Positions 46,367 to 63,750 are shown, numbered from the stretch's first letter. The stretch: 64,000 bases of DNA from an uncultured Actinomycetes bacterium (GCA_963797665.1 CAWCQE010000023.1:219845-283844); one strand, 5' to 3'. The notes: generated from the sequence alone by a model not told the origin. Made by a program: numbers and translations.

Positions 46367-46440
<74 letters not shown>

Positions 46441-46493: not shown

Positions 46494-46522
46494 GAGGCTC
46501 GAATCCTGCTCGGGGCGTCCGG
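46494..46522 (+). repeat. Direct repeat of the tRNA-Arg 3' end (att-like scar)
   Basis: AGGCTCGAATCCTGCTCGGGGCGTCCGGC repeats tRNA positions 46420-46448 (AGGTTCGAATCCTGCTCGGGGCGTCCGGC) with 1 mismatch, 55 bp downstream of the tRNA; marks start of lower-GC accessory region. Confidence 0.6.
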
Positions 46523-46678
46523 CGTTCTCCCTGCAAGTAGGCGCTTTCCGGCTGCGTTCACGGGCTGCGCCAGCCTTCATCGCTCGCCACTTCATCGCCA
46601 CTACGATCCTCGAACGCGGCCAGGCGGCGAGCAATATCGGCCCCGGCACCCTCGATAAGCGTCGCTCCGACATTTTCA

Positions 46679-47137
46679 TTAGTCGGTGGCGTGGGTTACG
46701 GGCTCGCCTTTGAAGGCTTCATCGACAAGCTTGTCAGCGTCTCCGTTCATCTCGCGGGGAACCCAGGACAGTCGCCATGACTTGAAGGGCTTGAGGGCTT
46801 CCCCGACTTCTTCGTAGAGCTCGGTAGCTCGCTCATTCTTGTTCCATCCACCCGTTATCTGGTTCACGACGTTCGCGGAGTCGCTGAACGCGGCGACATA
46901 GAGGAGTCGTTTCCCGGCGGCGAGCTTGAGACCGCGAATCAGAGCGAGGTACTCGGCCTCGTGTGGACTGCCGACGGGCCCCACTTTCTCGGCCACCCTG
47001 GCCAACACCGCGCCACAGCCGGGTTCCCGGAGAATGACCCCGATGGCGCCCTCCGCCTGGCCTTGCTCGTTGGCTCTCTTTCCTCCGTCGATGAACAGCA
47101 GGTAGTAGCCCTTCTTGAGGTCATCAACCATGAGCAA
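46679..47137 (-). CDS. RNase H (type 1, RVT_3/RNase-HI-like) family protein
   Basis: DGGKRANEQGQAEGAIGVIL (first Asp), EAEYLALIRGLKLAAG (Glu), YVAAFSDSANVVNQITGGW (Asp), REMNGDADKLVDEAF (Asn/Asp) match the RNase H catalytic DEDD arrangement. Confidence 0.7.
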   Translation of the reverse strand: MLMVDDLKKGYYLLFIDGGKRANEQGQAEGAIGVILREPGCGAVLARVAEKVGPVGSPHEAEYLALIRGLKLAAGKRLLYVAAFSDSANVVNQITGGWNKNERATELYEEVGEALKPFKSWRLSWVPREMNGDADKLVDEAFKGEPVTHATD

Positions 47138-48156: not shown

Positions 48157-48322
48157 CCGTCGGTCGGGCCCTTTCCAATCCTCCGCCCTGGCCCCAGACT
48201 GTTCGGCGTAGACTGGGCCCCGGCCCCGGATCGGACTCTGCTCGGGGTTCCCTGGCTACCGCCTCTGGGTTTACCGGCCCGGGCCATTTCTTGCCCTCTC
48301 GGCGCGAGATACTGCGTAGGCG

Positions 48323-48721
48323 ATGTCGCGGGAGAACGTGGAGATCGTGCTCCGGTCGCTTGAAGCGCAGAATCGGCGAGACCGGATGGCGCTGTCTGCC
48401 CTCGTTGAGCTCGTGTTCACCGCAATAGATACCCCTCAGCGGCCCTCGCGCTCGCGACCAGTCGCATACCCCATCGGAGTGCCACGCCTTGTACGACGAG
48501 TGGTGGTCGATGTTTGAGTACGTCCGATTCGAGACGTACGACGTCGCGGAGGCGGGCTCCGAAGTCGTAGTCCCGAACACCGCCTACATGCGGGGGCGCG
48601 GCGGGATCGAGGTGAGCGCGAGGAGCACGTTCGTGTACACGGTCGAGAACGGACAGATCACTCGCCTTCGGATGTCCAAGAGCGAGCCGAGGCACTCGAA
48701 GCCGTCGGGCTGCGGGAGTAG
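48323..48721 (+). CDS. NTF2/SnoaL-like small protein, paralog 1 (two apparent frameshifts)
   Basis: MSRENVEIVLRSLEAQNRRDRMALSALVELVFTAIDTPQ...EWWSMFEYVRFETYDVAEAGSEVVVPNTAYMRGRGGIEVSARSTFVYTVENGQITRLRM...(shift)...EALEAVGLRE*; paralog of the intact gene 61581..61979. Confidence 0.5.
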
Positions 48722-48728
48722 GCGCCGA

Positions 48729-48780
48729 CTTCTGCTTTGCGCGAGAGCAGCAGCCTTCCGCCTTCACGCGAAAGCGGAAG
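48729..48780. repeat. Tandem palindromic hairpin repeats (degenerate copy of 26-bp family + related CTTCCGC...GCGGAAG hairpin)
   Basis: CTTCTGCTTTGCGCGAGAGCAGCAG (48729-48753) and CTTCCGCCTTCACGCGAAAGCGGAAG (48755-48780) directly after the NTF2-paralog stop codon. Confidence 0.6.
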
Positions 48781-48974
48781 TCCCCGCTGCGGCTTGTGGC
48801 TCTGCGGATGAGGTCGCCTCGAATGCAAAACGCCCGGGAGCAAACGGGGCGAAAAGCTGCTTATTGAACACGAGGCTCGGTCAGGGGGTCCCGGACCCTG
48901 CACGCAAATGGAAGCGCCCGATCTCTCGACCGGCGCGCTGCGCTATCACGGATGCGGTTTTGCTCGGCCGTGCG

Positions 48975-49742
48975 TCAGTGCGTGTACTTCACCAACTGCT
49001 CCATGTCTGACCCGCCGGAGACGTCGACCGCAAGAACCGCCTGGCCGCTGCCCTTGGCATAGAACTTGATCTCAGAGGCGTTTGGCTCGATCGGGGAGAA
49101 GTCCTCGGTCATGAGGGCCGGCTTGAAATGGCCAGCGGGAACCCGGGCCTGCCCGTCGAGAGCGAGAACTCGCGACTGGTCCTCGGCCACGCCCTTCGAG
49201 TACTCCTCGCGGTAGGACAAGCCGACCGTGGGCTTTGCCGGCAGCGCGACCCCGGGCATGTTGCCGTCGACACCCGCCTCCCACGAGCCGTTGTCACGCG
49301 GATGGCCGTGGACGTATTCCACCGTGTGCTCGCCGAAATACCAGACGTTCCCGCACTTGTCCTGGGCGTACCAATCCCTGGTCTTCTCGACCGGCTTGCC
49401 CTGATGCCTGACGACGTCCCTGATAACGCGGGCCTTGATCCCGTCGGCGATCATCTTCGTCCGTCTGGTCGCCTTGATCACGTCCCGGTTCACCGACCCG
49501 TCGGAGTAGTCAAGGACGCGATAGACCCAACGGCTGCCGACGGTCATCGGCCATTGGCGGTTGTTGATGTTCGCGCTGAAGTCAGCCGGGTGGAGATGGA
49601 CGGGGTCAGCCCCCTGCGGCAACGCCGGGCACTGCTGCGAGGTTCCGCCACTTGCCGCCCCACCGAGCGGCAACACCAACGCCGCGGCCAGAACGCCGAC
49701 CGTGGCGGCGCCCACCTTGATCTGGACTGATCTGTTGGCCAT
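48975..49742 (-). CDS. Secreted hypothetical protein (signal peptide, no recognised domain)
   Basis: N-terminal MANRSVQIKVGAATVGVLAAALVLPLGGAASG signal; 255 aa with typical globular composition; lower GC than core. Confidence 0.55.
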   Translation of the reverse strand: MANRSVQIKVGAATVGVLAAALVLPLGGAASGGTSQQCPALPQGADPVHLHPADFSANINNRQWPMTVGSRWVYRVLDYSDGSVNRDVIKATRRTKMIADGIKARVIRDVVRHQGKPVEKTRDWYAQDKCGNVWYFGEHTVEYVHGHPRDNGSWEAGVDGNMPGVALPAKPTVGLSYREEYSKGVAEDQSRVLALDGQARVPAGHFKPALMTEDFSPIEPNASEIKFYAKGSGQAVLAVDVSGGSDMEQLVKYTH

Positions 49743-49851
49743 GCTTGCGCTCCTTTTCGCGTCGGCTCCTTTGGTCGCAGAGTTGTGGCGGAGCGAGATG
49801 AAATGCCCGTGAAAAGACGTCTATCGGGGGCACGGCGAGATCCGGGCGTTC

Positions 49852-50058
49852 ATGGACGAGTTCTTCGCGAGTTGGGACGAAGTTCGTATAGAGATCGCTT
49901 ACGGCCCGGTAGAGGTCGAGGACGGCCTCTTGATCGCCGGGAACGTCACCTCACGTGAGGGCATCGAAGTTCAGGCTCGAAGCGCATGGCTGATCACGCT
50001 TCGGGACGCCAGCAGACCTCGCTCACGCTCTTCCAGACCAAGCAGGAAGCCCTCGAAG
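49852..50058 (+). CDS. NTF2/SnoaL-like small protein, paralog 2 (truncated/frameshifted)
   Basis: ...IEIAYGPVEVEDGLLIAGNVTSREGIEVQARSAWLITLRD...(shift)...LFQTKQEALEAAGLRE*; same C-terminal peptide and same downstream hairpin as paralogs 1 and 4. Confidence 0.4.
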
Positions 50059-50069
50059 CCGCCGGGCTG

Positions 50070-50095
50070 CGGGAGTAACGCTTTATCGACTTTTG
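50070..50095. repeat. 26-bp palindromic hairpin repeat copy
   Basis: CTTTTGCTTTGCGCGAAAAGCAGAAG (10-bp arms, GCGCGA loop). Confidence 0.6.
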
Positions 50096-50347
50096 CTTTG
50101 CGCGAAAAGCAGAAGACTTGACGGATGCCGATCACCTGTCATCGCTGCGGCCGCCCGCCCGATCCCGAGCGCGCGGACCTCGACGGCTAGCTGATCCTCG
50201 ACGCGGGAGGACGGCTGGACGCTCGTCGTCTGTCCGGACCGCCAGACGGACGCCGAGCGCCAAGGCGTCCGGTTGCTGCCCGGGAAGCGCGGCTAAGGCT
50301 GACCCTCTGCCCGCCTCGACGTCAAGCGGGCCCGAAGCCGATTCGCG

Positions 50348-51022
50348 TCAGCTGAGGCTGAACGGCGGATACCGGTCGGTGATCAGCAGGAACGCGTACG
50401 CCGTAACCCGGTTTCCCCATCGCAAGACGCCCTCGACGAAGTGGAACAGGCCCTCCGGGTAGCGGCCGGTGAAGAGGATCGCGAACCAGGCGATCACGAC
50501 ACAGACGAAGGCCGCGATCCAGAGGAAGAAGAGGACGATGTAGTGGGGGATCGCCAGAAACCACTTGACCAGCGGCAGCCACCGGTTCAGATCCCGCTCC
50601 ACGTCCGGGTAGGGAAAATCGAGATGCACCGACTGCTGCTCGTCGGTGGACGGATAGCGATCGTCCATCAACGCCAGATAGACAGCGACTCGGTTGCTGA
50701 ACCGCAGGAACTGGAGGTTCCAGTCGTACCACCAGCGGGGGTACTTGAGGCGGAAGACGATCATCAGCAGGGTGGCAAGGAAAAGGATCCCGGCGACGGC
50801 GACGGCGCCGCCGCCCCACCCGTTGCCGCCGCCGCCGAGCGCCGCGAGCACGATCAGGATCGGGATCACGGTGAAGATCCGAAGCCCCGTCGTGAGGCGG
50901 TTGAGCGGCCGATCGGGGTAGTCGACCGAGAACGTCAGCGGATAGGCGCCATCGGATGGCGCGGTAGGGGGCTCGGGCTGGGTTGGCTGGGTCGGACCCT
51001 CAGGTGCGCCGGGCTGTTCCAC
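50348..51022 (-). CDS. DUF4389 domain membrane protein
   Basis: ...YPLTFSVDYPDRPLNRLTTGLRIFTVIPILIVLAALGG...RYPRWWYDWNLQFLRFSNRVAVYLALMDDRYP...ITDRYPPFSL matches DUF4389 conserved blocks; GAGGAGG RBS + GTG start at 51020-51022. Confidence 0.65.
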   Translation of the reverse strand: MEQPGAPEGPTQPTQPEPPTAPSDGAYPLTFSVDYPDRPLNRLTTGLRIFTVIPILIVLAALGGGGNGWGGGAVAVAGILFLATLLMIVFRLKYPRWWYDWNLQFLRFSNRVAVYLALMDDRYPSTDEQQSVHLDFPYPDVERDLNRWLPLVKWFLAIPHYIVLFFLWIAAFVCVVIAWFAILFTGRYPEGLFHFVEGVLRWGNRVTAYAFLLITDRYPPFSLS

Positions 51023-51250
51023 TTGCGCCCTCCTCTCGCCTCTCGGCCGGACCCTATAGCGCTCGCGCGGACGGTGCAAGCGCGAAGAGCTACTACACGG
51101 ACAGGGCGAGGTGAAAGCCTCCTGCCGCGTTTGCGAAGCACCCAGGTGTTGGGGAGCGCGGGGCCGCCCCAAGCCCATCCCTAGCGCTGTGCTTGACGAC
51201 CCGTGGTCCGCGGCTGCCGCCGCTGGAGGTATGAATCCAGATGTGACCGG

Positions 51251-51468
51251 GCGCTTCTGCTTACACGCGAGGGTGTCGCACAAACGGTCTCCGCGACATG
51301 CACCCTACGGATGCTCAGATAGGGCCTAGAGCGGCTGGGGAGGCGACTTGCAGGACGAGCGCGAGCCGGACGAGGCCGAGGTCGCCCGGATTGTTAACGC
51401 ATGCGGAGAAGCGCTTCTAACGGCTCGGTTGGGGTTTGTGCGACAGCCTCACGCGAAAGCAGAAGCGC
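51251..51468. repeat. MITE-like element: about 35-bp inverted repeats (containing half-sites of the 26-bp hairpin family) flanking about 150 bp
   Basis: Left GCGCTTCTGCTTACACGCGAGGGTGTCGCACAAAC (51251-51285) versus right GTTTGTGCGACAGCCTCACGCGAAAGCAGAAGCGC (51434-51468): reverse complements with few mismatches; no ORF inside. Confidence 0.45.
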
Positions 51469-51642
51469 GTGCGCGGCACTTGCTGCGTTGGTGAGCATTC
51501 GCTTCCAGGCTGGACCAGCCGCATGCCCGTCCCGCGGACGCTGCCCGACAGCTAGGTGCCGAGGTTCCGAAAGTGGGCCAAGCAGTGGCACATTCGATTC
51601 TGGGAACAGCGCGACAGTCAGGCCCACTCGCTAGACGACTGA

Positions 51643-52050
51643 TCAGCTACAGGGAAGCTCGGCGCCGCTGGACTCCACCGCCCGCCGAACCGCGTTGCCA
51701 CACTTGACGCGAATGTGAAGCCCGTACCTCCGCGCCAGTCTGGTGGCCGTGACCAAGGCGCGAAGGCCGCGCGGATCGACGAAGCTGACCCGCCTCAGGT
51801 CGAGGGTGATCGACGCGGTCTGGGGCCTCTCGATGATCCGTCGCAGGGAGTCGCCGAGCGTCCACGCGCTGCTGACGTCGATCTTGCCGACCGGCCGGAT
51901 GGTCGTCGAGTTGCCGATCTGCTCGGTCAATACCGAGAGCCGCTTCGAAGCCGTCGCTGATTCCTCCTCAAGGTCGGGTCGAGGACCCGCTTTGCGTCCT
52001 GCTCGGTGATTGCGACTCGTTCTTCGTGCTACCGCTACCCGGGTCGCCAC
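51643..52050 (-). CDS. STAS-domain protein (anti-sigma-factor antagonist, SpoIIAA/RsbV-like); N-terminal extent uncertain
   Basis: ...LSVLTEQIGNSTTIRPVGKIDVSSAWTLGDSLRRIIERPQTASITLDLRRVSFVDPRGLRALVTATRLARRYGLHIRVKCGNAVRRAVESSG matches STAS fold including the conserved phospho-acceptor region (D.S.V.F.DS-like). Confidence 0.6.
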   Translation of the reverse strand: MATRVAVARRTSRNHRAGRKAGPRPDLEEESATASKRLSVLTEQIGNSTTIRPVGKIDVSSAWTLGDSLRRIIERPQTASITLDLRRVSFVDPRGLRALVTATRLARRYGLHIRVKCGNAVRRAVESSGAELPCS

Positions 52051-52376
52051 GCATCAAGCAGTGAGATTCCTGACTGACCGCAAGCGCCGCGCTCATTCCC
52101 CCGAAAACAGGACGGGGCCGCCGGAAATCGACGGCCCACGCCTCTGCCCACCTGCGTCCTCAGGGGGACGGACCAAGCTATACCCGTAAGTTCCGAAGCG
52201 ATTCGCACGAAGGCGGTCACATTCCCGACGGCGGCGGGACGCACGAGGATGATCCGTGCGTCGTAGCGGGAACGAATCGGGCCACCTCCGCGATTACGGT
52301 CGTTCCTCTTGGGCTCGGCCGGCGTCGGGGACTGATCGAGTGACCGCTGGTCGGGCCCGGTCTTGCCCTGCAGCTG

Positions 52377-52768
52377 TTACGAAGCGGTCCCCGCGAGCGG
52401 CATCTCGATCCAGACGGAGCCGTGGGAATCCCCATGAAGCGATCCCCAGTGCTGGGCGAGGGTTCGAGTCAATAGACGCCCCAACTCCGCTCCCCGAGCT
52501 CTGGACGCCGCGGTCGAAGCTCGTAGGCTGCCGCGCCGTCCCTCACCTCCACGCGCAGGTGGCGATCGCCCAACTCGATGCGCAGGGTGATCGGGCGGCT
52601 GTCCGTCTCCTCGCTTCGCACCGCGCCGGCGACGAGCTCGCTGACTATCAGGTGCAGGTCGATGAAGGCGTCGCTCTCGAGCCGGTCGCGAAACTCTTTC
52701 AGGGCCTCCCGCGACCACCCGGCGCTCTCGGGCTTCGCGGGCAGTTCGACTGTCAAATACTCCTGCAT
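52377..52768 (-). CDS. RsbW/SpoIIAB-like anti-sigma factor (HATPase_c Ser kinase), apparent frameshift
   Basis: MQEYLTVELPAKPESAGWSREALKEFRDRLESDAFIDLHLIVSELVAGAVRSEETDSRPITLRIELGDRHLRVEVRDGAA (N-box/helix), C-terminal ...GSVWIEMPL in second frame; paralog of 60776..61135. Confidence 0.5.
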
Positions 52769-52932
52769 CCGCCTCTGATCCTGATCTACCCCTTGCGGAT
52801 CTAGGCATGCTCCGATTTTGCGATCGATTGTTGGCTTCCGGTTAAGCCCAGACGGTGGGCGAGCCAGATAACCTGGCCCGGTTGCCTCGACGCACCCAGT
52901 TGGAAACCTGATAGACCCGGATGGCCTGAAAC

Positions 52933-53292
52933 GTGGAGCTCGGTGTTGAAGCGACCCCGATCGGCGATGGTCACGCGCTGCTCATCGCCGTTAGCGGCGA
53001 GCTTGACCTTTCGACCTGTGATCAGCTGAAGCCGGCCGCCGACGAGGCGGTCTTTGGACACCGGCCGCTGATCCTCGACCTCTCTGGCTGCACGTTCATC
53101 GACTCGAGCGGGCTGCGTCTCGTCCTGCAGGTTGCCAACGGCCTCGCCGGGGACGAGGTGCCGATGGCGGTCATTGCCGAGTCCAACGTCCGCAAGATGT
53201 TCTCGCTTACGGCGATCGACCAGACGATCCCGCTGTTCGACACCCGCCAGGAAGCCCTCGTGTGGCTCGAGGGGAAGCCGGCGGCGAGCTGA
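52933..53292 (+). CDS. STAS-domain anti-sigma-factor antagonist
   Basis: LLIAVSGELDLSTCDQLKPAADEAV..RPLILDLSGCTFIDSSGLRLVLQVANGL; divergent from the RsbW-like gene. Confidence 0.7.
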   Translation: MELGVEATPIGDGHALLIAVSGELDLSTCDQLKPAADEAVFGHRPLILDLSGCTFIDSSGLRLVLQVANGLAGDEVPMAVIAESNVRKMFSLTAIDQTIPLFDTRQEALVWLEGKPAAS

Positions 53293-53539
53293 AACGTCTC
53301 GCACTGGTCGATCAGGTCCGACCATTCCGCAACCACCTCGGGACGCAATTGCTCGGGAGCCGCTCGGCGAGCGCGTGGACTCGCCGCCCCGCGTTTAGGT
53401 ATCGAGAGTTTCGGAAGCTCCTCCTTGGCTTGGCCGGTCGGAGAACCCACTCTCCGTCGCGGGACGACCGACAGCCAAGCTGCACTGGAGCCCTGGGCCC
53501 CCGGGGCTCCAGCTACGTCTGCGCGATGCCGCCCTCACC

Positions 53540-53592
53540 AACGCCGGGCTGCGGAAGTACGCAGCGCTTCTGCTTTGCGCGAAAAGCAGAAG
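53540..53592. repeat. Ghost 3' end of an NTF2-paralog gene (…NAGLRKY) plus perfect 26-bp hairpin repeat
   Basis: GCCGGGCTGCGGAAGTAC matches the GCCGGGCTGCGGGAGTA(A/G) gene ends at 48705/50047/61590, followed by CTTCTGCTTTGCGCGAAAAGCAGAAG (53567-53592). Confidence 0.55.
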
Positions 53593-53899
53593 TCACGCCT
53601 GCAGCCGCACCGCTCAACAATCCGTGCGTGTAGCGAGAAACGAATCGGCCTCCCGATCTGCACTCACGACCGGTACCGCTTTTGGGACCGACTGCCGTGT
53701 CCGATGCGTCCAGATCGTCCACGCTCGGGGACGATGGGGACGCGAGGGACGCCCACGGACGCATCTACACCGATTGCCGCCCGGCTGGGGGCCGAAAGGT
53801 CGCCGGTTCAGATCCGGCCGCCCCGACTATGCGAAAGCCCGCTTCCGAAGCGGGCTGTCGGCATGTCGGCCGGTCCTGTGATCCGCCGGCGAAGGGCTC

Positions 53900-54266
53900 G
53901 TGGTACCAGCCGTGGTACCGGGCGGGGAGGCCGGCGACCCTCGGCGCGCGATAGTTACGCTCTGCTCGTGGAGCGGAGGGAGATCCTTCAGGCCGCCCCG
54001 TTCGGGGAGCGCATTCGCGGAGCAGGAGCTGGACGAGCTCGCCGAGTACTTCGTGGAGACGGATAAGTGGCGCCGGTTGTACGCGGGCGACGTGGACATT
54101 GTCTACGGGCCAAAGGGCTCCGGGAAAAGCGCCCTCTACTCGCTGCTGGTCATCAAGCAGCAGGGAGTTATTCGATCGCGGCATCCTGATCGTCCCGGCG
54201 GAGCCTGCGACGGTGACCAGCCCGGCACACGCGTCCACCTCTTCGCGCCGCGACCGCCTGGCGTGA
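53900..54266 (+). pseudogene. Truncated P-loop NTPase (N-terminal Walker A fragment only)
   Basis: ...AFAEQELDELAEYFVETDKWRRLYAGDVDIVYGPKGSGKSALYSLLVIKQQG...(shift) ELFDRGILIVPAEPATV... then stop; only about 100 codons of an ATPase, no downstream continuation. Confidence 0.3.
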
Positions 54267-54298
54267 TCTCCGCCCCAGGCGGGTAGCGGAGCCTCCGA

Positions 54299-55288
54299 AT
54301 GACCGGGTTCCTGCTCGCGGCGGCATTCGCGCTGATTGTCGGCGGCGCGATCCTGTTCACGAACGCGATCGAGTGGGCGGGCAAGCGTCTCGACCTCGGT
54401 GAGGGAGCCGTGGGGAGCCTGCTGGCCGCAGTCGGTACGGCCCTGCCGGAGTCGGTGATTCCCGTTGTCGCGGTGCTCGCGGGCGGCGAGTCCGAGGAGG
54501 TCGCGATCGGCGCCATCGTCGGCGCCCCGTTCATGCTGGGCACGGTCGCCATGCTGCTGGTCGGCGCCAGTGCGCTGGCGTTCCGCCGATCGCGAAGCAG
54601 CGGCTCGGAAGTGACCCCCGACGAGCGCTCTCTGCGTCGCGACCTCCACCTCTTTCTACCCTGCTTCGCCATCGGCCTCGCCCTCGGGCTGATCGACTCG
54701 ATGCCCGTTCACATCGCCGGGGCGGTCGGGTTGCTGATCGCCTACGCAGCCTACGTCCGGCGGACGGTCCGACACAGCGGCGAGAGCGAGGACGCGGACG
54801 AGCTCAGGCCGCTCACGTTCGACCCCACCAAGGAAGACCCGCCTCGCAACGTCGCGATCGTCGCCCAGGTCGTTTTCGGGCTGTTGATGATTGTCGGCGG
54901 CGCCGAGCTCTTCGTCGAGGAGGTCGTGACAGTCGCCGAGGCGCTCGGCATCTCCGCCCTGGTGCTTTCCCTCGTGCTCGCGCCGCTCGCGACCGAACTC
55001 CCGGAGAAGCTCAACAGCGTGATCTGGATGCGCCGCGACAAGGACACCTTGGCGGTCGGCAACATCACCGGGGCGATGGCGTTTCAGTCCACCGTGCCGG
55101 TCGCCCTCGGTCTCGTGGCGACCGACTGGGACCTCGACCGGTTCGCGCTCGCCGCCGGAGTCGCTGGCCTCGTCGGCGGCGCGCTGGCCCTGTGGCGGCT
55201 CCCGAAGGACAGGCTGGGAGCACCGGTGGTAGTCGCCTGGAGCGCCCTGTTCGTCGGCTTCGTCGCCTTCGCCGCGCTGAGCCCCTAA
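54299..55288 (+). CDS. Ca2+:cation antiporter (CaCA) family sodium/calcium exchanger (YrbG-like)
   Basis: Two alpha-repeat regions GSLLAAVGTALPES... and ...SLVLAPLATELPEKLNSVIW (conserved GTxLPE motifs), 10 TM helices. Confidence 0.8.
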   Translation: MTGFLLAAAFALIVGGAILFTNAIEWAGKRLDLGEGAVGSLLAAVGTALPESVIPVVAVLAGGESEEVAIGAIVGAPFMLGTVAMLLVGASALAFRRSRSSGSEVTPDERSLRRDLHLFLPCFAIGLALGLIDSMPVHIAGAVGLLIAYAAYVRRTVRHSGESEDADELRPLTFDPTKEDPPRNVAIVAQVVFGLLMIVGGAELFVEEVVTVAEALGISALVLSLVLAPLATELPEKLNSVIWMRRDKDTLAVGNITGAMAFQSTVPVALGLVATDWDLDRFALAAGVAGLVGGALALWRLPKDRLGAPVVVAWSALFVGFVAFAALSP

Positions 55289-55367
55289 CTGCGCTTGAGC
55301 TGAATCGAGATTGAAATGGCGCGAAGAAAGGAGCGCAGCCCTGGAATGCGTGCGGGGCCGGAGACGC

Positions 55368-57013
55368 TCAGGCGATCCGGTGGTCGAACACCGTCTCCAG
55401 CCGCGCCCCCTCGGCCTGGGGGTCGTGCACAGTCTTCGAGATAGTGAGACTCGCCTCACGCCCCTCGAGGCTCAGGGTCGCGATCTGGTTGTCGAAATAG
55501 GGGCCGCCGGCGAAGCGCCAGCGGATGCCCGCATCCTCGACCCCCGCCGCACCGGCGAGCATGCGGAGGAGCAACTCCGCGGGCCGCGTCGTCGCGGCCC
55601 TCACTGCGCGGCGCTCGTGCGCGTCCAGGGCCTTGCGAAACGGCGAGCACACCGCCTGATAGACGGCGCTGCTCACGTTCGCATCGCGCCGAAACGCCAC
55701 CTCCGCGAGGAACGCGTGGTGGACATCGCCGGAGAGAAGGCAGATTGAGGCCGGAGGGCGGCCACGCGCGCCGGAGCCCACCTCCTCGAGCAGACGGGCG
55801 AGTCGCGTGAACGAGCGCTGAAAGGCGCCCCAGTGGTCGCAGTCGACCGCGCGCCTCATCCGCTCGCCTACCGCCGCCACCGCATTCCCCCAGGCCCCGC
55901 CGCAGATCGCCTCGTTCCAGGCCTCCAGGTAATGGAGGCCGGGCGCGAGCAGGAAGGGATCTGAGGTCCCGATCAGCAGGTGGTCGAAGTCGCCGCGCAC
56001 CTTTTCCTGGACCCAGTCCCACTCCTCCTCATCGAAGATCGAGCGGCGGCCTTCCTCCAGGACGCGGCCCGTACGCACGTCCATCACGATGAGCCGCGTC
56101 GAGCCCAGATCGCGGTAGTAGCTCCACCGCTTCCCCTCTCGCTCACGATCCTCCTTGGCGGCGTACTCCCGCAAAATGGGCCCGGCGTCGTCGAGTTCGC
56201 GAACCTTCCGGTATAGGTGGTTTTGCTCTAGCTCGCGTGGCGAGAGGTTGCCAATGAATTGGTAGATCCAGTACGACACGAGTCCGGCGACCACGCGCTC
56301 GGGCCACCACGCCAGATCGCGCATGTCCTCGAGCCAGGAGCGGGAGATGTTCCAATCGTCGTGCATGTCGTGATCGTCGATCACCATCGCGATCGAGGTC
56401 GTCGAGAAGAGCCACCGAATCACTGGATCGCCCCACGACTCCAGGTAAAGACGGGTGTACTCCTCGAAGTCGGCGACCTCCTCCCCGGGGGGCGGGTCGT
56501 GTCCCTTCTTAAGCGGATGAAGTCGAGCGCCTGCGGCGAGACCTCGTCCGCGTACACCTGGTCGCCGAGCAGGAGCACGAGCTCCGGCCAGCGATCTGGC
56601 TGCGACTCGATCATCGACAGCGCGAGGGTGTGGAGGGCGTCCAGGCCGCGGCCGCGTTCGTCCTCGTCCTTCGGAAGGGTGTACGGGGGGTGATGGGGGA
56701 GCGCCGCCCGGCAGGAGCCAAAGATGATGTCGGTTCGCGCGTTCGGGTCGACGGTGCGGATGATGCTGCGCGGAAGCTCAGAGCCGGGATCGGGCCAGCG
56801 CGGCTCGCCGTCTAGAGAGACGCCGTACTCGTAGGCGGTCCCCGGCTCGAGACCGTCGATGCAGACGAGCGCGTAATGATGCCCTTCGACCCCGAACGTG
56901 GGGGTGCGGTGGCCGAGCGCCTCGACCTCGCACGGCCCGTCCGTCTCCACCCACAGGACGGCCTCCGTGTCCGAGACGTATCGCAAGACGGGGCCGAGGA
57001 GAAGCTCGGGCAT
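55368..57013 (-). CDS. PhoD-like alkaline phosphatase / metallophosphatase; one apparent frameshift near 56470
   Basis: N-terminal beta-sandwich (…VLWVETDGPCEVEALGH…), LLLGDQVYADE, MVIDDHDMHDDWN, ...GDVHHAFLAEV... PhoD metallophosphatase motifs across ORFs 56420..57316 and 55368..56423. Confidence 0.7.
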
Positions 57014-57126
57014 GCTCTGGTTGATACCCGGATCCGTCCGAGTCACCCGCCGGCCCGACAACATCCCCGAAACCCGCCCACCGGCCGAACGTGGCTGCCG
57101 TCCGACCTCTCCGCTGAGCGAACCCG

Positions 57127-57486
57127 GTGAGGGCGAGGCGACCGGCGAGGAGTCGAACACCTGCCCTCCTGTCGCGGTACACCCCCATCGAGCTCTTCTA
57201 CCGCAACCAGGGCGAGGAGAACTCGGGCTACCTGACCAACTCGTTCCTGACCTCGATCGCCGAGGCGGCGGGGGTAAAGGACATCGACAAGTGGAACAGC
57301 GATCGGCAGGACTCAAGGTGGGATGCGGTTCTGTCGAAGAACAGTACCGAGGCTCAGAATCTTGGCTTCACCGGCACCCCGTCGATCCTCGTCCAGGGAC
57401 CGGGCGGGCGTAAGCCCTTCGCGGCGATCCCGACGTTCTCGCAGATCCAGACCGCGGTCAAGGCTGTCCGGCAACGACCCGATTGA
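57127..57486 (+). pseudogene. C-terminal fragment of a DsbA-like thioredoxin-fold protein (CxxC-containing N-terminus missing)
   Basis: ...YTPIELFYRNQGEENSGYLTNSFLTSIAEAAGVKDIDKWNSDRQDSRWDAVLSKNSTEAQNLGFTGTPSILVQG... corresponds to the helical insert and C-terminal beta-strand region of DsbA-like proteins; no upstream thioredoxin motif. Confidence 0.4.
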
Positions 57487-57506
57487 GGGAGTCGGCAGCC
57501 GCAGGG

Positions 57507-57531
57507 CTGTCGCTTTGCGCGAAAGCAGAAG
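57507..57531. repeat. 26-bp palindromic hairpin repeat copy (degenerate left arm)
   Basis: CTGTCGCTTTGCGCGAAAGCAGAAG immediately after the DsbA-fragment stop. Confidence 0.5.
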
Positions 57532-57836
57532 TTTCCACTCACTCTATTGTCCGACCGCTTCGCAGCTCCGGAGTGAGCGGTCTGAACCTTGGGTTGTTGT
57601 CGCCGAGACCAGCCGCGTATGGCCCCGACCCGCCACAGAGAGAGCGCGCCAGCCACCATCAGCAACAGCCGACGGCCCGAGCAAGCCACGCATTCGCCAC
57701 GGCGCGCTGGCTCACCTCGTTGATCTCGCCGACCGCTAGCTCGAGCAGCGTCTCGTCATGCAAGAGGGGCAGCTTGACGGTTGCGTTAGGACGGCAGGTA
57801 TACGTAGGCGGCCCGAGGTCGGGTAGACAGTAACCC

Positions 57837-59425
57837 ATCCGACCGCTTCGCCTCTACCTGACCCTCTCCGGGGGAGCATCGCTGGGCGCCTACGAGGCTG
57901 GGGCCGCGGCCGGCCTCGCCCTGGCAACGCGCTATCTCGACGCCGAGGAGGGCCAGGAGGTCACCGTCGATGCGATCGGCGGTGCGTCCGCGGGTGCGCT
58001 GGTGAGCTTCTTCACCGCCCACGCCCTACTCGAGGGTCTCGATCCCGAGGCGCTCCTGCACGAGACGTGGGTCGAGCGCGTCACGCTGCCGTTGCTCCGC
58101 GCCAAAGACTCCAACGCGCTGCTCTCCTTCGACGAGCTCCGCGAGCGCGTGCCGGAGGTGCTCGCCTCCGACGGGCCGGCGGCCGCCGATCGCGACGGCA
58201 TCGACTACCGCCAGCGGCGCCCGCTCGCCCTGCACGTGCAGGTCACCGGCCTGCGCGGCCTCACCTATTCGATCCAGGGCCTGCGCCAAGACGCGCCGGT
58301 GACGGGCGCGACCTACGCCGACTGGGGTCGGTTCGAGCTTCGCCCGGGCGGCGGATCGCAGCAGATGCTCGAGCCGGAGGGTCGCTCGCCCTGGACTTCG
58401 TCCTCGCGTCCGCCGCGAGCCCTGGGGGCTTCGCGCCGGAGCTACTCGACCGCCGCCCGGACGTTCCAACCTACGAGCAGCATGGGATCGAGGACTTTCC
58501 CGACTCCGGGCACCTGTGGTACACGGACGGTGGGCTGCTTGGCACGCGGCCGCTCGGTCGCGTGATCGCCGCCGGTCAGGAGCTCCACGGCGTCGATGAG
58601 CGCGCCCACCGTCTCCACCTGCTGATCGACCCGCGCTCCGAGAACGCCGCGCTCGACACGTGGAGCGACCCGGACGCCGACCCCAGCTGGCAGACCGGCG
58701 CCTCGCGCGCCCTCGCCATCCTGTCCGAGCAGAGCCTCTTCGACGACATGCGCCGGATCGCGGAGGAGAACGCGAGGATCGAGTGGGTCGAGCGGCTCGC
58801 GGAGAGGCTGGCCCCCAGGCTCGATGACGACGCCGCCTCCGCCCTGCGAGAGTTCATCGCCGAGGTCGAGTCCGACAGCCCGGAAGGGCACGGCGGAGAT
58901 GGGGAGACCCGGGACGGCGACCTCACCACGCTCCTGGGCCGTGCGCTACGAGAGATCGGCGGCCTCGTCGGTAAGGAGCGAGTCTCGATCGATGTGATCT
59001 CGCCCTTGGTTCTGGCCGGCAGCGGAGACGAGGAGGTCGGCGCCCTTTTGGCCGGAGAGTTCATGGGAGATTTCGGCGGCTTCCTCAGCCGCAACCTGCG
59101 CGCGAGCGACTTCGCGCTCGGCTACCAGAGCACGATCGCATGGCTGGACCGGGGGTTGCCCGCCTGCGGGGTGGACGAGGAGACCGTGCGCCGGACGGTG
59201 GAGTTCGTCGAGTCAAAGCGCCGCTACGACCCCGACGAGATCCGAAGCGGAGAAGCCGAACTCTCCGACCTCTCACTCACCGACCGGTTCGAGCTCGTGC
59301 GCCTTGGCACCCACGCCGCCAGGGTGCTCGGCGCCGGGATCTTCGACGTGCGCTCGCGCATCCCCGACTCCCTCGGCCGCGCGATCGAGCGGACGCGGGA
59401 GCGACTGTCGGGGGGCGGAAGCTAG
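57837..59425 (+). CDS. Patatin-like phospholipase family protein (about 530 aa); no canonical start codon in frame, one apparent frameshift near 58390
   Basis: LYLTLSGGASLGAYEAG (oxyanion GG/SGG block), GxSxG nucleophile IGGASAGAL, DGG catalytic-Asp motif LWYTDGGLLGTRPLGRVI; long C-terminal helical extension. Confidence 0.6.
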
Positions 59426-59484
59426 ACGGCTCGGCGCTGCCATTCCGCGCACGTCATTGCCACCATCGCTAGGCGATCGGCCGG

Positions 59485-59829
59485 CTAGGACTCGGTTTCG
59501 CCCCTGCTGGTGAGCGGCTGCGCCGCCCAGAACCAGCTAAAGAGGATCACGGCACCGACCATCGCCGCCGCCAGAAACGCAAGCCCCGCGATCGAGAGCG
59601 AATTGGAGACGAGGAGGACATGCTCCTTGTCCTTTTGGCGGAAGTGGAGGCGATGCCATGCAGACGGGGCGATCAGGAGCACTGACGCCACCGCCGTGGC
59701 GCACAGGGTGCCGAAGAACGGTGCCCGCTGGAAGGAGGTGGTGGAGGTGAATCCCTGGGCCAAGCGGGCGTAAAGCGGGTCTCCCAGCGCCGCGTCGCTG
59801 CTCTCAGAACCCGCATCAGCTTCAACCAT
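59485..59829 (-). CDS. Small membrane protein (2-3 TM), unknown function
   Basis: Hydrophobic segments FFGTLCATAVASVLLIAPSAW and LSIAGLAFLAAAMVGAVILFSWFWA; 114 aa. Confidence 0.4.
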   Translation of the reverse strand: MVEADAGSESSDAALGDPLYARLAQGFTSTTSFQRAPFFGTLCATAVASVLLIAPSAWHRLHFRQKDKEHVLLVSNSLSIAGLAFLAAAMVGAVILFSWFWAAQPLTSRGETES

Positions 59830-59848
59830 TCCGCTTTAACCTCCGCCG

Positions 59849-60181
59849 ATGGACTGGGCACAGCTGCCCTTCGGCACGCGGGAACACCGCGTCGCGTTCA
59901 ACGAGGCGGCATGCCGGCATCTCAACGAGCGCAAGGCGCAATGGATCGACCACGGACTACCGACCGCCGGCTTCCGATGTGAGTGCGGAACCATGCACTG
60001 CGGTTCTCGGTTTCGCCTCTCTCAAGAGCATTGGGATGAGGCGCGGGCGCGAGCTGACCGCTTCATGGTCGCGCCCGAGCATGTCGCACCGGATGTAGAG
60101 GTGGTGGTCAAGGAGTACCCCGAGTTCTGGCTCGTCGAGAAGCGGGGCGAGGCCGAGGAGATCGTCGAGGATCTGGAGTAA
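59849..60181 (+). CDS. Zinc-ribbon-like small protein, paralog A (CEC-x4-C family, unknown function)
   Basis: ...AFNEAACRHLNERKAQW...FRCECGTMHCGSRFRLSQEHWDEARARADRFMVAPEHVAPDVEVVVKEYPEFWLVEKRGEAEEI aligns along full length with 61186..61521. Confidence 0.5.
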   Translation: MDWAQLPFGTREHRVAFNEAACRHLNERKAQWIDHGLPTAGFRCECGTMHCGSRFRLSQEHWDEARARADRFMVAPEHVAPDVEVVVKEYPEFWLVEKRGEAEEIVEDLE

Positions 60182-60662
60182 CGCCCTCGTCGTTCGCCTT
60201 GGCGCGGAAGATCCGGTTAACCCACTAAGCCCATTGCGGCGATGTGAAGCGCACCCTCGTTGGGTTGCGGGCTACTACACAGGTGCCAACTCCACGGGCG
60301 TTCACAGGCCACCGCGTACGAAACTGCCGTAGCGGGCGGATTCCGGCCAGTGGCGCGGGTAGCCTCCGGGCACGGGGTACGGAGGATGAGCGTTCATAGC
60401 TACCGCCTCACCTGTCGAGGCGTATTGTCGCCGTACGTGATTCTCGAGTTGTTTCGGCGCGGCGTCTACCGCGCTTGGGGCGGTCCCGAGCGTCCGGCGT
60501 GGTAGCCAGGAATGGTTGCCGGCGAGCGCTGACGGCCTCTGGCATCCAACGCGAGCGATGCAGACATCCGGTCCTTCTTGAACGTGGCTTGTTCCGCTCG
60601 GACCAGCCTCGCTCACGCCCGTCAATTTCGCGGGATAGAGTGGGCTCACGTGTTCCTGAGCG

Positions 60663-60688
60663 CTTCTGCTTTTCGCGCAAAGCAGGAG
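60663..60688. repeat. 26-bp palindromic hairpin repeat copy (inverted orientation, loop TCGCGC)
   Basis: CTTCTGCTTTTCGCGCAAAGCAGGAG = reverse complement of the consensus with 1 mismatch. Confidence 0.55.
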
Positions 60689-60775
60689 CGCGACTCTAGG
60701 CGAGGGCTCAGCCGCTCCCTCTTCCCCTTAACGCAGGCGTTCGAAGGACGGCCGCCGCGGGTACCGGAGCCAGTG

Positions 60776-61135
60776 ATGGCCATCAGGCTGGAACTGGAGC
60801 CGGGGCCGGAGGCCGGGCACCAAGCGCGCGACGAGGTTCGCTATCTCCTCCGCGACCGGGTAGACGACGGCTTGCTAACCGACTTGCAGCTGATCGTCAG
60901 CGAGCTCGTGACGAACTCGGTGCGGTACGGACCGGGCGAGACAATCGAGGTTGGGATCGCGGTTGCTGAGGGTGGTTCGATCACGGGCGAGGTCGAGGAC
61001 CACGGCAGGGGTGAAGTCGCGATGCGTGAGATCACTGACGAGGGCGGTGGCTTTGGCTTGCGGATCGTCGACGCCCTGGCGAGCCGCTGGGGCGTCCATG
61101 AAGGCAGCACCCAGGTGTGGTTCGAGCTCAGCTGA
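60776..61135 (+). CDS. RsbW/SpoIIAB-like anti-sigma factor (HATPase_c Ser/Thr kinase)
   Basis: MAIRLELEPGPEAGHQARDEVRYLLRD...LTDLQLIVSELVTNSVRYGPGETIEVGIAVAEGGSITGEVEDHGRGEV...GGGFGLRIVDALASRWGV (N, G1, G2 boxes of GHKL kinases). Confidence 0.65.
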   Translation: MAIRLELEPGPEAGHQARDEVRYLLRDRVDDGLLTDLQLIVSELVTNSVRYGPGETIEVGIAVAEGGSITGEVEDHGRGEVAMREITDEGGGFGLRIVDALASRWGVHEGSTQVWFELS

Positions 61136-61185
61136 GCCCCCTAGCCCGACCCGCGCTTAGAACCGGACGGGGGTAGCCTCTGTGC

Positions 61186-61521
61186 ATGGCCGGAGAGCGC
61201 GAGCGGCGGCTGGGGGAGAACGAGACCATCTTCCGGGCTGCCAACGAGCGCATGGCAAGCTGGGAGGAACGAGACCGCCTCGAAGCGGTCGAGCTCTACT
61301 TCTGTGAGTGCGCCGACCCGACCTGCACGCAGAAGGTCAGGCTACGCGGCTCCGACTACGAGCGGGTGCGCGGTGATCCGACCCACTTCTTCGTCGTGCC
61401 CGGGCACGAGGTCGCGGATGTGGAAGCGGTGCTCGAGTCGCACTCGGATTGGGTCCTTGTCGAGAAGGATGAGGCCGAGGCCCGCGACGTAGCCGAGGAA
61501 ACGGACCCCCGGCAGGACTAG
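61186..61521 (+). CDS. Zinc-ribbon-like small protein, paralog B (CEC-x4-C family, unknown function)
   Basis: ...ETIFRAANERMASWEERDRLEAVELYFCECADPTCTQKVRLRGSDYERVRGDPTHFFVVPGHEVADVEAVLESHSDWVLVEKDEAEARD; shares CEC...C, F.V.P.H..DVE.V and W.LVEK blocks with paralog A. Confidence 0.5.
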   Translation: MAGERERRLGENETIFRAANERMASWEERDRLEAVELYFCECADPTCTQKVRLRGSDYERVRGDPTHFFVVPGHEVADVEAVLESHSDWVLVEKDEAEARDVAEETDPRQD

Positions 61522-61550
61522 GCCACACCCCTCAGCGGGGTGGCGCGCAG

Positions 61551-61575
61551 CTTCCGCGTCTCGCGCAAAGCAGAG
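61551..61575. repeat. 26-bp hairpin repeat copy (inverted orientation, degenerate) serving as 3' element of the minus-strand NTF2 gene
   Basis: CTTCCGCGTCTCGCGCAAAGCAGAG; on the minus strand follows ...CTGCGGGAGTAG (…GLRE*). Confidence 0.5.
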
Positions 61576-61580
61576 TGGCG

Positions 61581-61979
61581 CTACTCCCGCAGCCCGGCGG
61601 CTTCGAGGGCCTCGTCCCGGCTCGGATATTCCGTGATCTTCAGGATCTTGCCGTCCTCGACGCTGAACACTCGAAACAGGTCCGTGTGAATCCAGGTCTG
61701 CGCGTCGCTGCCCTTCAGGCCGCGTCCCGCTACCCGCTCTACGGTGACGACACAATCTCCGGCTTCGATCATCTCGTCGGCTTCGACCCGGTACTCGTCG
61801 TACGAGTCGGACAACGAATCGAGGAATCGCGTGATCTCGTCGATTCCCTGGAAGGTCCCCGAGCCGCCAACGAGCACCAGCTGTATTTCTGGGTGCCAGA
61901 TTTCGTGGAGAGTGGACCAGTCTCTCGCGCCCCGCGCGGCGACATCTCGCCGCACGACCTCCACGTTCCCCTGCGACAT
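61581..61979 (-). CDS. NTF2/SnoaL-like (ketosteroid-isomerase-fold) small protein, intact paralog
   Basis: MSQGNVEVVRRDVAARGARDWSTLHEIWHPEIQLVLVGGSGTFQGIDEITRFLDSLSDSYDEYRVEADEMIEAGDCVVTVERVAGRGLKGSDAQTWIHTDLFRVFSVEDGKILKITEYPSRDEALEAAGLRE*. Confidence 0.65.
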   Translation of the reverse strand: MSQGNVEVVRRDVAARGARDWSTLHEIWHPEIQLVLVGGSGTFQGIDEITRFLDSLSDSYDEYRVEADEMIEAGDCVVTVERVAGRGLKGSDAQTWIHTDLFRVFSVEDGKILKITEYPSRDEALEAAGLRE

Positions 61980-63096: not shown

Positions 63097-63293
63097 CGAT
63101 TGAGCCGGTCAGTCGGACCCTGCTGCGCCAAGGGATCGGGCTGCACGCGGGCGAGGACGCGGCTGCCGTCTGCTTTGAGCACGATGCAGCCGACGTGGCC
63201 GGCGATCAGCGGCTCCAGTTCGCCTTTCAGGAGGTACCGCGAGGCCCTCGCCGTCGTTTTTCCGCACCCCTCAGCACCTATCTTCCTCGCTAG

Positions 63294-63441: not shown

Positions 63442-63750
63442 GCGAGGGCGTGACCTCCGACCGCGCGGAGCGCACTCGCAAGGCGACCGAGTTTCCTCGT
63501 TTGGCGGTTCCCGCCCTCGAAGCCGCCGGCCTCTCGCAGTAGGCGATATCGCAGGAGGACGCCGAGCGCATCCGTCGCGCCCTATGTCTGCAAACGAGAC
63601 GGTCCGACGACGGCGACGGAGCAGTTGTGGGCTGAGGACGCCCCTTATCGAGAGCGATCAACGCGGCACCGTCGGAACCTTGATCGCCGCGGGACGTGCG
63701 ATTTGGTTTCATTGCAAACGGGCAATCTCGCGAGTCTTGGGAGGTCGGTA

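Follow-up and report, generated by a model that had tools for sequence, protein, structure and literature searches.

Short palindromic repeats that may delimit gene cassettes in soil Solirubrobacterales

Background

The lox and FRT sites and the dif sites of single-Xer systems consist of identical inverted arms around an asymmetric spacer, which sets the direction of the site and must match that of the partner site. In the Hin system the gene of the serine invertase is bracketed by inverted sites, an arrangement that recurs in the loci described here. On Acinetobacter plasmids, discrete gene modules lie between short dif-like sites (pdif) and are shuffled between replicons, with an Xer-type enzyme presumed to act on them (PMC9771954). 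An actinobacterial dif site is described from Frankia (CACGCCGATAATGCACATTATGTCAAGT; PMC3025954). This report concerns a family of palindromic hairpin repeats in a stretch of 64,000 nucleotides (the window) from an uncultured Actinomycetes bacterium (CAWCQE010000023.1:219845-283844), in which the repeats are scattered through an island of accessory genes that follows a 46-kb core.

The analysis was computational throughout and compared the sequences of the window, of loci in metagenome-assembled genomes (MAGs) and of soil-metagenome contigs; loci and contigs outside the window carry L numbers. The reading put forward here, which is given about an even chance of being correct, is that the hairpins are core recombination sites delimiting gene cassettes and that the island is a decayed cassette array. 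The hairpins are read as recombination sites because of the behaviour of sequence junctions, the polarity of the arrays and the presence of a flanked tyrosine recombinase gene. Full-text literature searches turned up no description of the repeat or of the system, nor any report of such a cassette system in Actinomycetota.

The hairpin sites and their distribution

The hairpin family reported in the original prediction is real. A search for near-exact 26-mers with at most three mismatches returned sites C, E and G (Table 1) and gave no match in 100 shuffles. A relaxed scan across the window, in which up to five arm mismatches and a centre of 5 to 7 nt were tolerated, returned nine sites (one of them weak) between 48.7 and 63.2 kb, every one at or beyond position 48729, compared with 0 to 1 in 20 shuffles. 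The core is free of copies, as had been claimed; it holds a single 7-mer half-arm, as against 10 in the island. Most of the positions first listed were right, including the perfect copy at 53567, but the copy placed at 50070 starts at 50090 and the pair at 51251 and 51434 is one interrupted site (below).

Each site is a palindrome of about 30 bp, CRCTTCTGCTTT-N6-AAAGCAGAAGYG, with an asymmetric centre. The 30-bp consensus of the aligned copies, CRCTT-CTGCTTT-N6-AAAGCAG-AAGYG, contains two identical inverted arms of 10 to 11 bp (CTTCTGCTTT / AAAGCAGAAG) with weaker CRC...GYG conservation outside them, and no conserved flank extends past 30 bp among these copies. The centre falls into two classes, both 6 bp long and asymmetric, GCGCGA in H1 sites and CACGCG in H2 sites; the arms are the same in both, and H2 can alternatively be parsed as 11-4-11. 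When soil metagenomes were scanned for perfect arms enclosing any N6 centre, at least 120 contigs matched, and among the matches listed the centre was GCGCGA/TCGCGC in 64 and CACGCG/CGCGTG in 61, all others occurring once or twice. The two centre classes are as strongly conserved as the arms.

The motif had been proposed to be specific to this island, which it is not. A scan of 185,579 species genomes with the query CTGCTTTKCGCGMAAAGCAG returned 79 loci, about 65 of them from Solirubrobacterales/Thermoleophilia MAGs, and the exact 20-mer is present 34 times in CAWALB01, 20 times in CAVQCK01 and seven times in the complete 3.3-Mb chromosome OY969725.1. Copies are dispersed at many positions over Mb-size contigs; restriction to this one locus, which had been set beforehand as a ground for refuting the prediction, is not what is observed. 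Every carrier is either a MAG of an uncultured organism or a contig from a soil metagenome. About 12 further lone matches in unrelated taxa, eight of them at loci below 62% G+C, are consistent with chance. The core genes of the window are 84.5% identical in DNA to CAVQCK01, and the window therefore comes from a relative. Copies are often found at the ends of contigs, and the family is thus a source of breaks in MAG assemblies as well as a useful marker of variable regions.

A scored set of 321 sites (193 H1 and 128 H2) was drawn from 1.03 Mb, comprising the loci and the window. All but four of these sites (317) lie outside predicted genes in DNA that is 68% predicted coding, and the window sites, as had been observed from the start, are without exception extragenic. 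Most copies had also been placed immediately 3' of small genes; this holds for five of the eight window sites, which lie within about 30 nt of the 3' end of a gene or pseudogene, but site G lies between two divergent gene starts. Neighbouring sites are separated by a median of 0.9 kb (interquartile range 0.66-1.54 kb). Arms are nearly always paired, 496 of 627 10-mer arms falling in scored sites. DNA uptake sequences are short motifs that occur as abundant single copies, also inside genes; the pairing of the arms and the near absence of half-arms from the core rule out this identity for the hairpins.

The two halves of the supposed pair, 35-nt arms that are 89% complementary, belong to one CACGCG-type H2 site, site D (51254-51465), which is split by a 182-bp insert. 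The insert has the defining features of a miniature inverted-repeat transposable element (MITE), and its entry into the H2 centre duplicated the central ACGC as a 4-bp target duplication. A full-length IS5-family insertion sequence (IS) element (DDE_Tnp_1) with the same ends lies in an H2 centre at L082 5990-7546, and related copies, a MITE among them, are found in L078 (4715-4907 and 5370-7190). The MITE and its parent IS5-family element insert specifically into H2 centres, duplicating ACGC.

Direction of the sites

Because its centre is asymmetric, each site has a direction, which neighbouring sites share in 70 cases against 11 in the genome loci and in 47 against 18 in the metagenome contigs. 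The directions of H1 and H2 sites are mutually coherent, and the genes between them point either way. Eleven switches of direction occur within 8-kb loci; replication direction is thus not the cause of the polarity, and a replication-strand explanation was ruled out on this ground. The two classes also form doublets of uniform direction in which H1 precedes H2 in 46 cases and the reverse order was never seen. Site polarity tracks the array (86%) more closely than the neighbouring gene (67-77%).

Both orientations of the centre occur in the window, as predicted, with inverted centres at 60663 and 61551. Sites A, B, C, E and F are all in the '+' direction across genes on both strands, as is the split site D when read from its two halves. 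The polarity flips between F (57507, '+') and G (60663, '-'), where the remnant of a recombinase gene is situated.

Junctions at the sites

Alignments between loci tend to end at the hairpins. Among 646 distinct BLAST alignment ends, those due to locus edges having been left out, 90 lie within 5 nt of the outer edge of a site, with a modal offset of 0 (33 cases). About 1% would be expected for ends spread over intergenic DNA, and the enrichment at sites is about 18-fold. A 924-bp module (L017 3278-4200 and L077 3262-4185) is 99.9% identical in two loci, has direct H2 sites at both ends and is set between unrelated flanks. L044, from a different MAG, has a copy at 92% identity that starts at a similar site. 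The window itself provides a further example. The segment 60652-61571, which comprises site G, a two-gene module and site H, is 90% identical to L063 576-1494, and the alignment is confined to these positions of the 4.2-kb contig. Site G matches L061 (91%) in its left arm and the flank on that side, and L063 in its right arm and right flank, indicating that two modules have been joined inside the site.

Two further comparisons show changes at a site. The L207/L208 and L209/L210 contigs carry an identical recombinase; the approximately 40 nt shown match from the end of the gene through the downstream H1 site to ...TCGCGCAAAGCAG, and beyond the downstream H1 arm (AAAGCAG) the contigs are unrelated. 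The single insertion/deletion polymorphism observed is that between L180, which reads X-H2-Y, and L126, which reads X-H2-(720-bp module)-H2-Y; identity between the two loci is about 90% in X and Y. This pair is the product expected of integration at a site or of deletion between two direct sites. A difference between L043/L101 and L197 was considered as a site insertion and ruled out, as it is an ordinary deletion of a gene and has no relation to the sites.

A flanked Xer-like recombinase gene

A motif search for box II of tyrosine recombinases identified an open reading frame (ORF) of 230 aa in L011 and L061. Its product contains the PF00589 catalytic domain only (E 4e-28), and the R, K, HxxR, H and Y motifs are present as read by eye. 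The best NCBIfam matches are XerC and XerA, far under their cut-offs (88 bits against 335 for XerC), and the integron-integrase profiles also score far under theirs (TIGR02249, 60 bits against 265; NF011946, 49 against 435). Among proteins of solved structure, XerA, a XerC-like protein and XerD are the nearest to it. The family is very large in soil metagenomes, where 7,999 of 8,000 candidates scored at E 1e-10 or better, and the best 120 of those 8,000 are about 230 to 260 aa long, apart from one of 306. No tblastn match at E 1e-20 was found in 72,556 plasmids.

Further copies or remnants of the gene occur in L136, L149, L135, L102 and L053, and a 209-bp segment of the window (60488-60696) shares 91% identity with the sequence that precedes the intact gene in L061. 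When the gene is read from start to stop, the layout is an array of '+' sites ending in an H1 about 100 nt upstream, then the recombinase, then an inverted H1 about 20 nt past the stop codon followed by '-' sites. It is found in L011, L061, L136, L149, L102, L053, L207-L210 and the window, and the inverted H1 sites that bracket the gene mean that array polarity flips at the recombinase. In L135, whose protein is 71% identical, the array centre is TCGTCC and the gene is bracketed by inverted centres, CCATGC upstream and GCATGG downstream. HicB-like antitoxin genes lie directly upstream of or near the recombinase in L080 (8419-8634), L082 (9698-9922) and L204 (4870-5285), in the last together with HicA; all three contigs were retrieved by way of the protein.

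A possible cassette system

By analogy, the anatomy of the hairpin is that of a simple tyrosine-recombinase core site. The sites would act as double-stranded recombination cores and not as structural RNA; a recombinase of about 230 aa would bind the arms as a dimer and exchange strands in the centre, whose asymmetry would give the site its direction and restrict exchange to like with like. Integration of a circular module at a site would leave that module between two sites of the same direction, and repeated integration would build arrays of uniform polarity made of one- or two-gene modules with the observed spacing. The window from 48.7 kb on may be one such array, in which the recombinase gene has been cut to a remnant of about 70 bp beside site G and several modules are decaying, as judged by the SnoaL-like pseudogenes, a truncated DsbA-like ORF and the MITE inside one site. 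A cassette reading is preferred because the arms assort independently, the centres fall into two strict classes, the sites are co-oriented, their spacing is that of modules and junctions fall within sites, each of which would be expected of site-specific integration and excision. The recurrent bracketing of the Xer-like recombinase gene provides a candidate enzyme.

The wider proposal would be a new cassette system of soil Solirubrobacterales (Thermoleophilia, Actinomycetota), with a catalytic-domain-only Xer-like recombinase, symmetric sites of 26 to 30 bp, two heterospecific spacers, tens to hundreds of sites per chromosome and mirror-image polar arrays from which one- or two-gene modules are captured, lost and exchanged. 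From sequence comparison this is judged to have slightly less than an even chance of being right.

Several observations weigh against these proposals. Some modules shared between loci end in one H1 and one H2 site, which a single like-with-like excision cannot yield, and RecA-dependent recombination between repeats of 26 to 30 bp could give the same junctions. H1 sites lie in the sense of the adjoining gene that ends there in 89 cases against 27 (77%; the H2 bias is 67%), and a transcript-level element would give the same H1 bias. Xer, Cre and IntI have an N-terminal core-binding domain that the recombinase lacks. The loci with the '+ + recombinase - -' layout carry a homologous recombinase-plus-site unit and are not independent, and polarity around the gene is opposite in L135 and L081. 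When six contexts were fetched through the protein alone, clean sites were found only in the L207 group; in L080, L203 and L204 the sites are degenerate or missing, with no recognisable lineage-specific array around the recombinase. In the complete chromosome OY969725.1, none of the seven H1 loci has the recombinase gene.

Alternative explanations

The strongest alternative, considered distinctly less probable than not, is that the hairpins resemble repetitive extragenic palindromes (REPs). They would be selfish or structural palindromes spread through gene conversion or by an unseen transposase of the RAYT or another type, with recombination, IS insertion and the recombinase all incidental; they would be tolerated between genes, perhaps as stabilisers of mRNA 3' ends or weak terminators, and would supply microhomology for RecA. 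REPs, the mosaic elements built from them (BIMEs) and REPINs share with the hairpins a short extragenic palindrome of high copy number, clade-specific, present in both orientations and clustered in variable regions. IS elements that target REPs are known, and the insertion of an IS5-family element and of MITEs exactly into the site centre resembles them. The sense bias of H1 relative to the upstream gene fits this explanation, as do the stability of the stems (-20 kcal/mol for H2 as RNA, -9 to -12.5 kcal/mol as DNA) and the uncompensated arm substitutions (T·C 16, G·A 10 and C·A 7, against G-C 3), which are expected of decaying copies. However, there is no 5' tetranucleotide of the GTAG type, the flank consensus being CRC...GYG, and neighbouring sites are direct, unlike the inverted pairs of REPINs and BIMEs. 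The original prediction of a REP/MITE-like mobile hairpin stands for the dispersed extragenic palindrome and fails for the pairing and head of REPs; it fails too for a MITE, an identity ruled out for the hairpin by the lack of a body beyond 30 bp and of a direct duplication. The RAYT or IS200-like gene that was to be sought was not found: a tblastn search of 1.1 Mb for Y1/RAYT-like ORFs, a weak test with IS608 TnpA and Escherichia coli RAYT queries, returned none. No transposase family recurs among the 617 locus proteins, and the partner gene here encodes a tyrosine recombinase and not an HUH enzyme. Two sharply discrete centres conserved like the arms, the fixed order of H1 and H2 and the recurring unit of site, recombinase and inverted site are also left unexplained. 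If this conservative explanation were true, the family would be the first REP-like repeat for the class, as far as literature searches show.

It is improbable that the hairpins bracket transcription units as dedicated terminators or insulators, or as sites bound by a DNA- or RNA-binding regulator specific to the clade. Many sites do lie 3 to 30 nt past stop codons, there is an excess of convergent gene pairs (52 of the 147 contexts classified), and H2 is often just upstream of the leader of a SnoaL-like gene with H1 just past its stop, so that the pair brackets the unit. The suggestion that the motif is a terminator was nevertheless not borne out, since no T-run follows the stem (the flank there is YG...), a terminator scan called none of the sites and the sense bias is no more than 77% for H1 and 67% for H2. 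Another 25 of the 147 contexts are divergent intergenic regions, polarity follows the array over the neighbouring gene, and breaks of inter-genome homology inside sites would be unexplained. Loop and sequence are conserved over hundreds of unrelated genes in several species without compensation. A structural RNA or single-stranded DNA hairpin kept by covariation was likewise ruled out, as Watson-Crick pairs at variable flank positions numbered 70 against 69.6 expected from the marginals and 75 against 76. Rfam (E up to 1) matched nothing at the sites between 46 and 64 kb, where it found the tRNA-Arg gene alone.

A very improbable last alternative, that the motif is the 3' untranslated tail of one recently duplicated SnoaL-like gene, draws on the four window copies that follow SnoaL-like genes or fragments and on the 48 of 193 H1 sites with a ...GLRE* tail within 28 nt upstream in constant orientation (...AGLRE* at 3 to 10 nt), but it is ruled out by the tail counts, as such a gene is absent next to 75% of the H1 sites and next to every one of the 128 H2 sites (a lack of independent occurrence had also been named as a ground for refutation), the paralogues have only 25-42% protein identity to the window copy while the site is near-identical and the 3- to 10-nt spacer from stop to site is not conserved, and about 100 different protein families flank the sites.

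Other content of the island

The content of the modules is diverse, with 100 Pfam families among 119 proteins. The island of the window (Table 1) contains accessory genes for STAS and HATPase_c_2 partner-switching proteins, SpoIIE, DUF4389, a Na/Ca exchanger, a PhoD-like protein, DUF6328 and SnoaL_2-like proteins and their fragments. The G+C content is about 70% in the window and about 65% past the tRNA-Arg(CCT) gene at 46367-46440. The 3' 29 nt of this gene are repeated 77 bp downstream (46495-46523, 97%) and more weakly at 48228-48247 (80%), and these repeats at the left edge of the island look like att-site scars of a formerly integrated element. An RVT_3/RNase H-like gene lies at the edge between core and site array both in the window (46679-47137, minus strand) and in the unrelated recombinase-bearing contig L081 (12345-12839, minus strand).

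SnoaL_2/NTF2-like genes are expanded, accounting for 49 of the 617 predicted proteins of the genome loci (L007, L017, L029, L082 and others). They are often in tandem, 3 to 14 nt apart, with a leader conserved at the DNA level (GCGAGATACTGCGTAGGCG-ATG) and a conserved tail (...EALEAAGLRE*); the leader, just before the start codon, may include a promoter of their own. The difference between L094 and L180 was found to be a tandem SnoaL gain via the conserved gene head and not via a site.

The PhoD-like phosphatase gene seems to have been divided, probably by a frameshift, into two overlapping minus-strand ORFs (55368-56423 and 56420-57316), and the DsbA-like ORF at 57127-57486 (+) encodes only the C-terminal part of its domain. 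Together with the SnoaL-like pseudogenes, these suggest that the island is decaying. Two paralogous ORFs, 59849-60181 (+) and 61186-61521 (+), encode proteins of 110 to 111 aa with zinc-ribbon-like Cys pairs and matched no family in Pfam or NCBIfam. Positions 53620-53870 of the window form a non-coding block, some 250 bp long, that recurs in five genomes at 75-83% identity. At its end are a tRNA-like T-arm, in which changes are compensatory (GCCGG/CCGGC versus GCGAG/CTCGC), and an apparent stem-loop with a short T-run. Rfam gave a weak match to the tRNA-like domain of transfer-messenger RNA (tmRNA) in L076 only (15.9 bits, E 0.012) and ARAGORN found nothing; the block could be a tmRNA-derived attachment remnant or a small RNA carried as a module.

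Table 1. Coordinates of the hairpin sites and associated features (window positions unless an L number is given)
Feature	Position	Strand	Description
SnoaL_2-like pseudogene	48323..48720	+	Frameshifted; leader GCGAGATACTGCGTAGGCG-ATG, tail ...GLRE*
Site A	48729..48753	+	Degenerate H1, CTTCTGCTTT GCGCG AGAGCAGCAG; 8 nt past the stop of the frameshifted SnoaL-like pseudogene
Site B	48755..48780	+	H2-type, CTTCCGCCTT CACGCG AAAGCGGAAG; with A, the usual H1-H2 doublet
SnoaL-like gene, second	49852..50077	+	C-terminal fragment
Site C	50090..50115	+	H1, 1 mismatch
Site D, left half	51254..51268	+	H2 left arm CTTCTGCTTA + C-ACGC; left target duplication copy 51265-51268
MITE, 182 bp	51269..51450	.	Terminal inverted repeats GAGGGTGTCGCACAAAC / GTTTGTGCGACAGCCTC; within H2 centre
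Site D, right half	51451..51465	+	ACGC (right duplication copy) + G-AAAGCAGAAG; relaxed-scan match 51441-51465
SnoaL-like tail remnant	53528..53559	+	Isolated; ...NAGLRK*
Site E	53567..53592	+	Perfect H1; exact start point of homology to L076
Site F	57507..57531	+	Degenerate H1-like, CTGTCGCTTT GCGCG AAAGCAGAAG; 20 nt past the truncated DsbA-like ORF
Recombinase 5' remnant	60490..60558	-	About 20 codons; 60549-60490 matches residues 4-23; beside site G
Site G	60663..60688	-	H1, inverted centre (TCGCGC on + strand), 1 mismatch
Two-gene module	60689..61550	+	HATPase_c_2 anti-sigma kinase-like 60773-61135; 111-aa ORF 61186-61521
Site H	61551..61576	-	Degenerate H1, inverted centre; separates the 111-aa ORF from the SnoaL-like gene convergent with it
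SnoaL_2-family gene	61581..61979	-	Intact, 132 aa; commonest gene of the putative cassettes in these arrays
Weak ninth site	63167-63192		Relaxed scan
SnoaL-like position, further	63510-63577		
Relatives of the non-coding block	L076 2395-2660, L020 4768-5031, L073 6269-6463, L048 2693-2881		

Comparison with known site-specific systems

The arrays resemble integrons, sedentary chromosomal arrays and CALINs included, in their small and diverse modules of about 0.7 to 1.5 kb, each ending in a conserved palindromic site and co-oriented, in the presence, absence or swapping of modules exactly at sites (L180/L126, L207/L209 and L017 = L077) and in the tyrosine recombinase gene beside the array. They differ in most other respects. 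The sites are near-perfect palindromes of 26 to 30 bp with no bulged bases in the consensus, whereas attC sites are 55 to 141 bp long with R''/L''/L'/R' boxes and extrahelical bases. The 230-aa recombinase is without the IntI-specific insertion and falls short of the integron-integrase cut-off (60 against 265 bits), the arrays lie on both sides of the gene with mirror polarity and at many chromosomal places, and genes inside the modules point either way. With neither an IntI-type integrase nor attC sites, an integron identity was ruled out.

The two inverted arms of about 11 bp around a 6-bp centre recall the pdif sites. However, pdif arms differ from each other (XerC and XerD) and pdif sites flank their modules inversely, whereas here the arms are identical and the sites flanking shared modules are direct (H2+...H2+, H1-...H1-), with inversion only around the recombinase gene. 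The location is chromosomal and the recombinase has no plasmid match, and the candidate enzyme is a dedicated truncated Xer-like protein and not the host XerCD. A canonical dif site was ruled out, as the sequence does not resemble the Frankia dif, sites number in the tens per genome and are not a single one at the terminus, and the recombinase is not a full-length XerC or XerD.

In site structure there is a likeness to Cre/loxP, Flp/FRT, the dif sites of XerH, XerS and XerA, and the Rci/sfx shufflon, which have inverted identical arms and a short directional spacer, and the two spacer classes would be equivalent to heterospecific lox variants. One or few sites per replicon are usual in those systems, unlike the tens to hundreds that bound unrelated genes here. 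If the cassette proposal is true, a compact enzyme of some 230 aa with a site of 26 bp and two natural heterospecific spacers would be of practical interest for recombinase-mediated cassette exchange, and the system would account for accessory-gene turnover in these small genomes. It would combine the simplest type of site with a minimal enzyme in a soil lineage that ranks among the most abundant and the least cultured. The arrays would then be functionally analogous to integrons and pdif modules, with lox-like sites as their building blocks, and a third independent route, after those two, to cassette-based genome plasticity.

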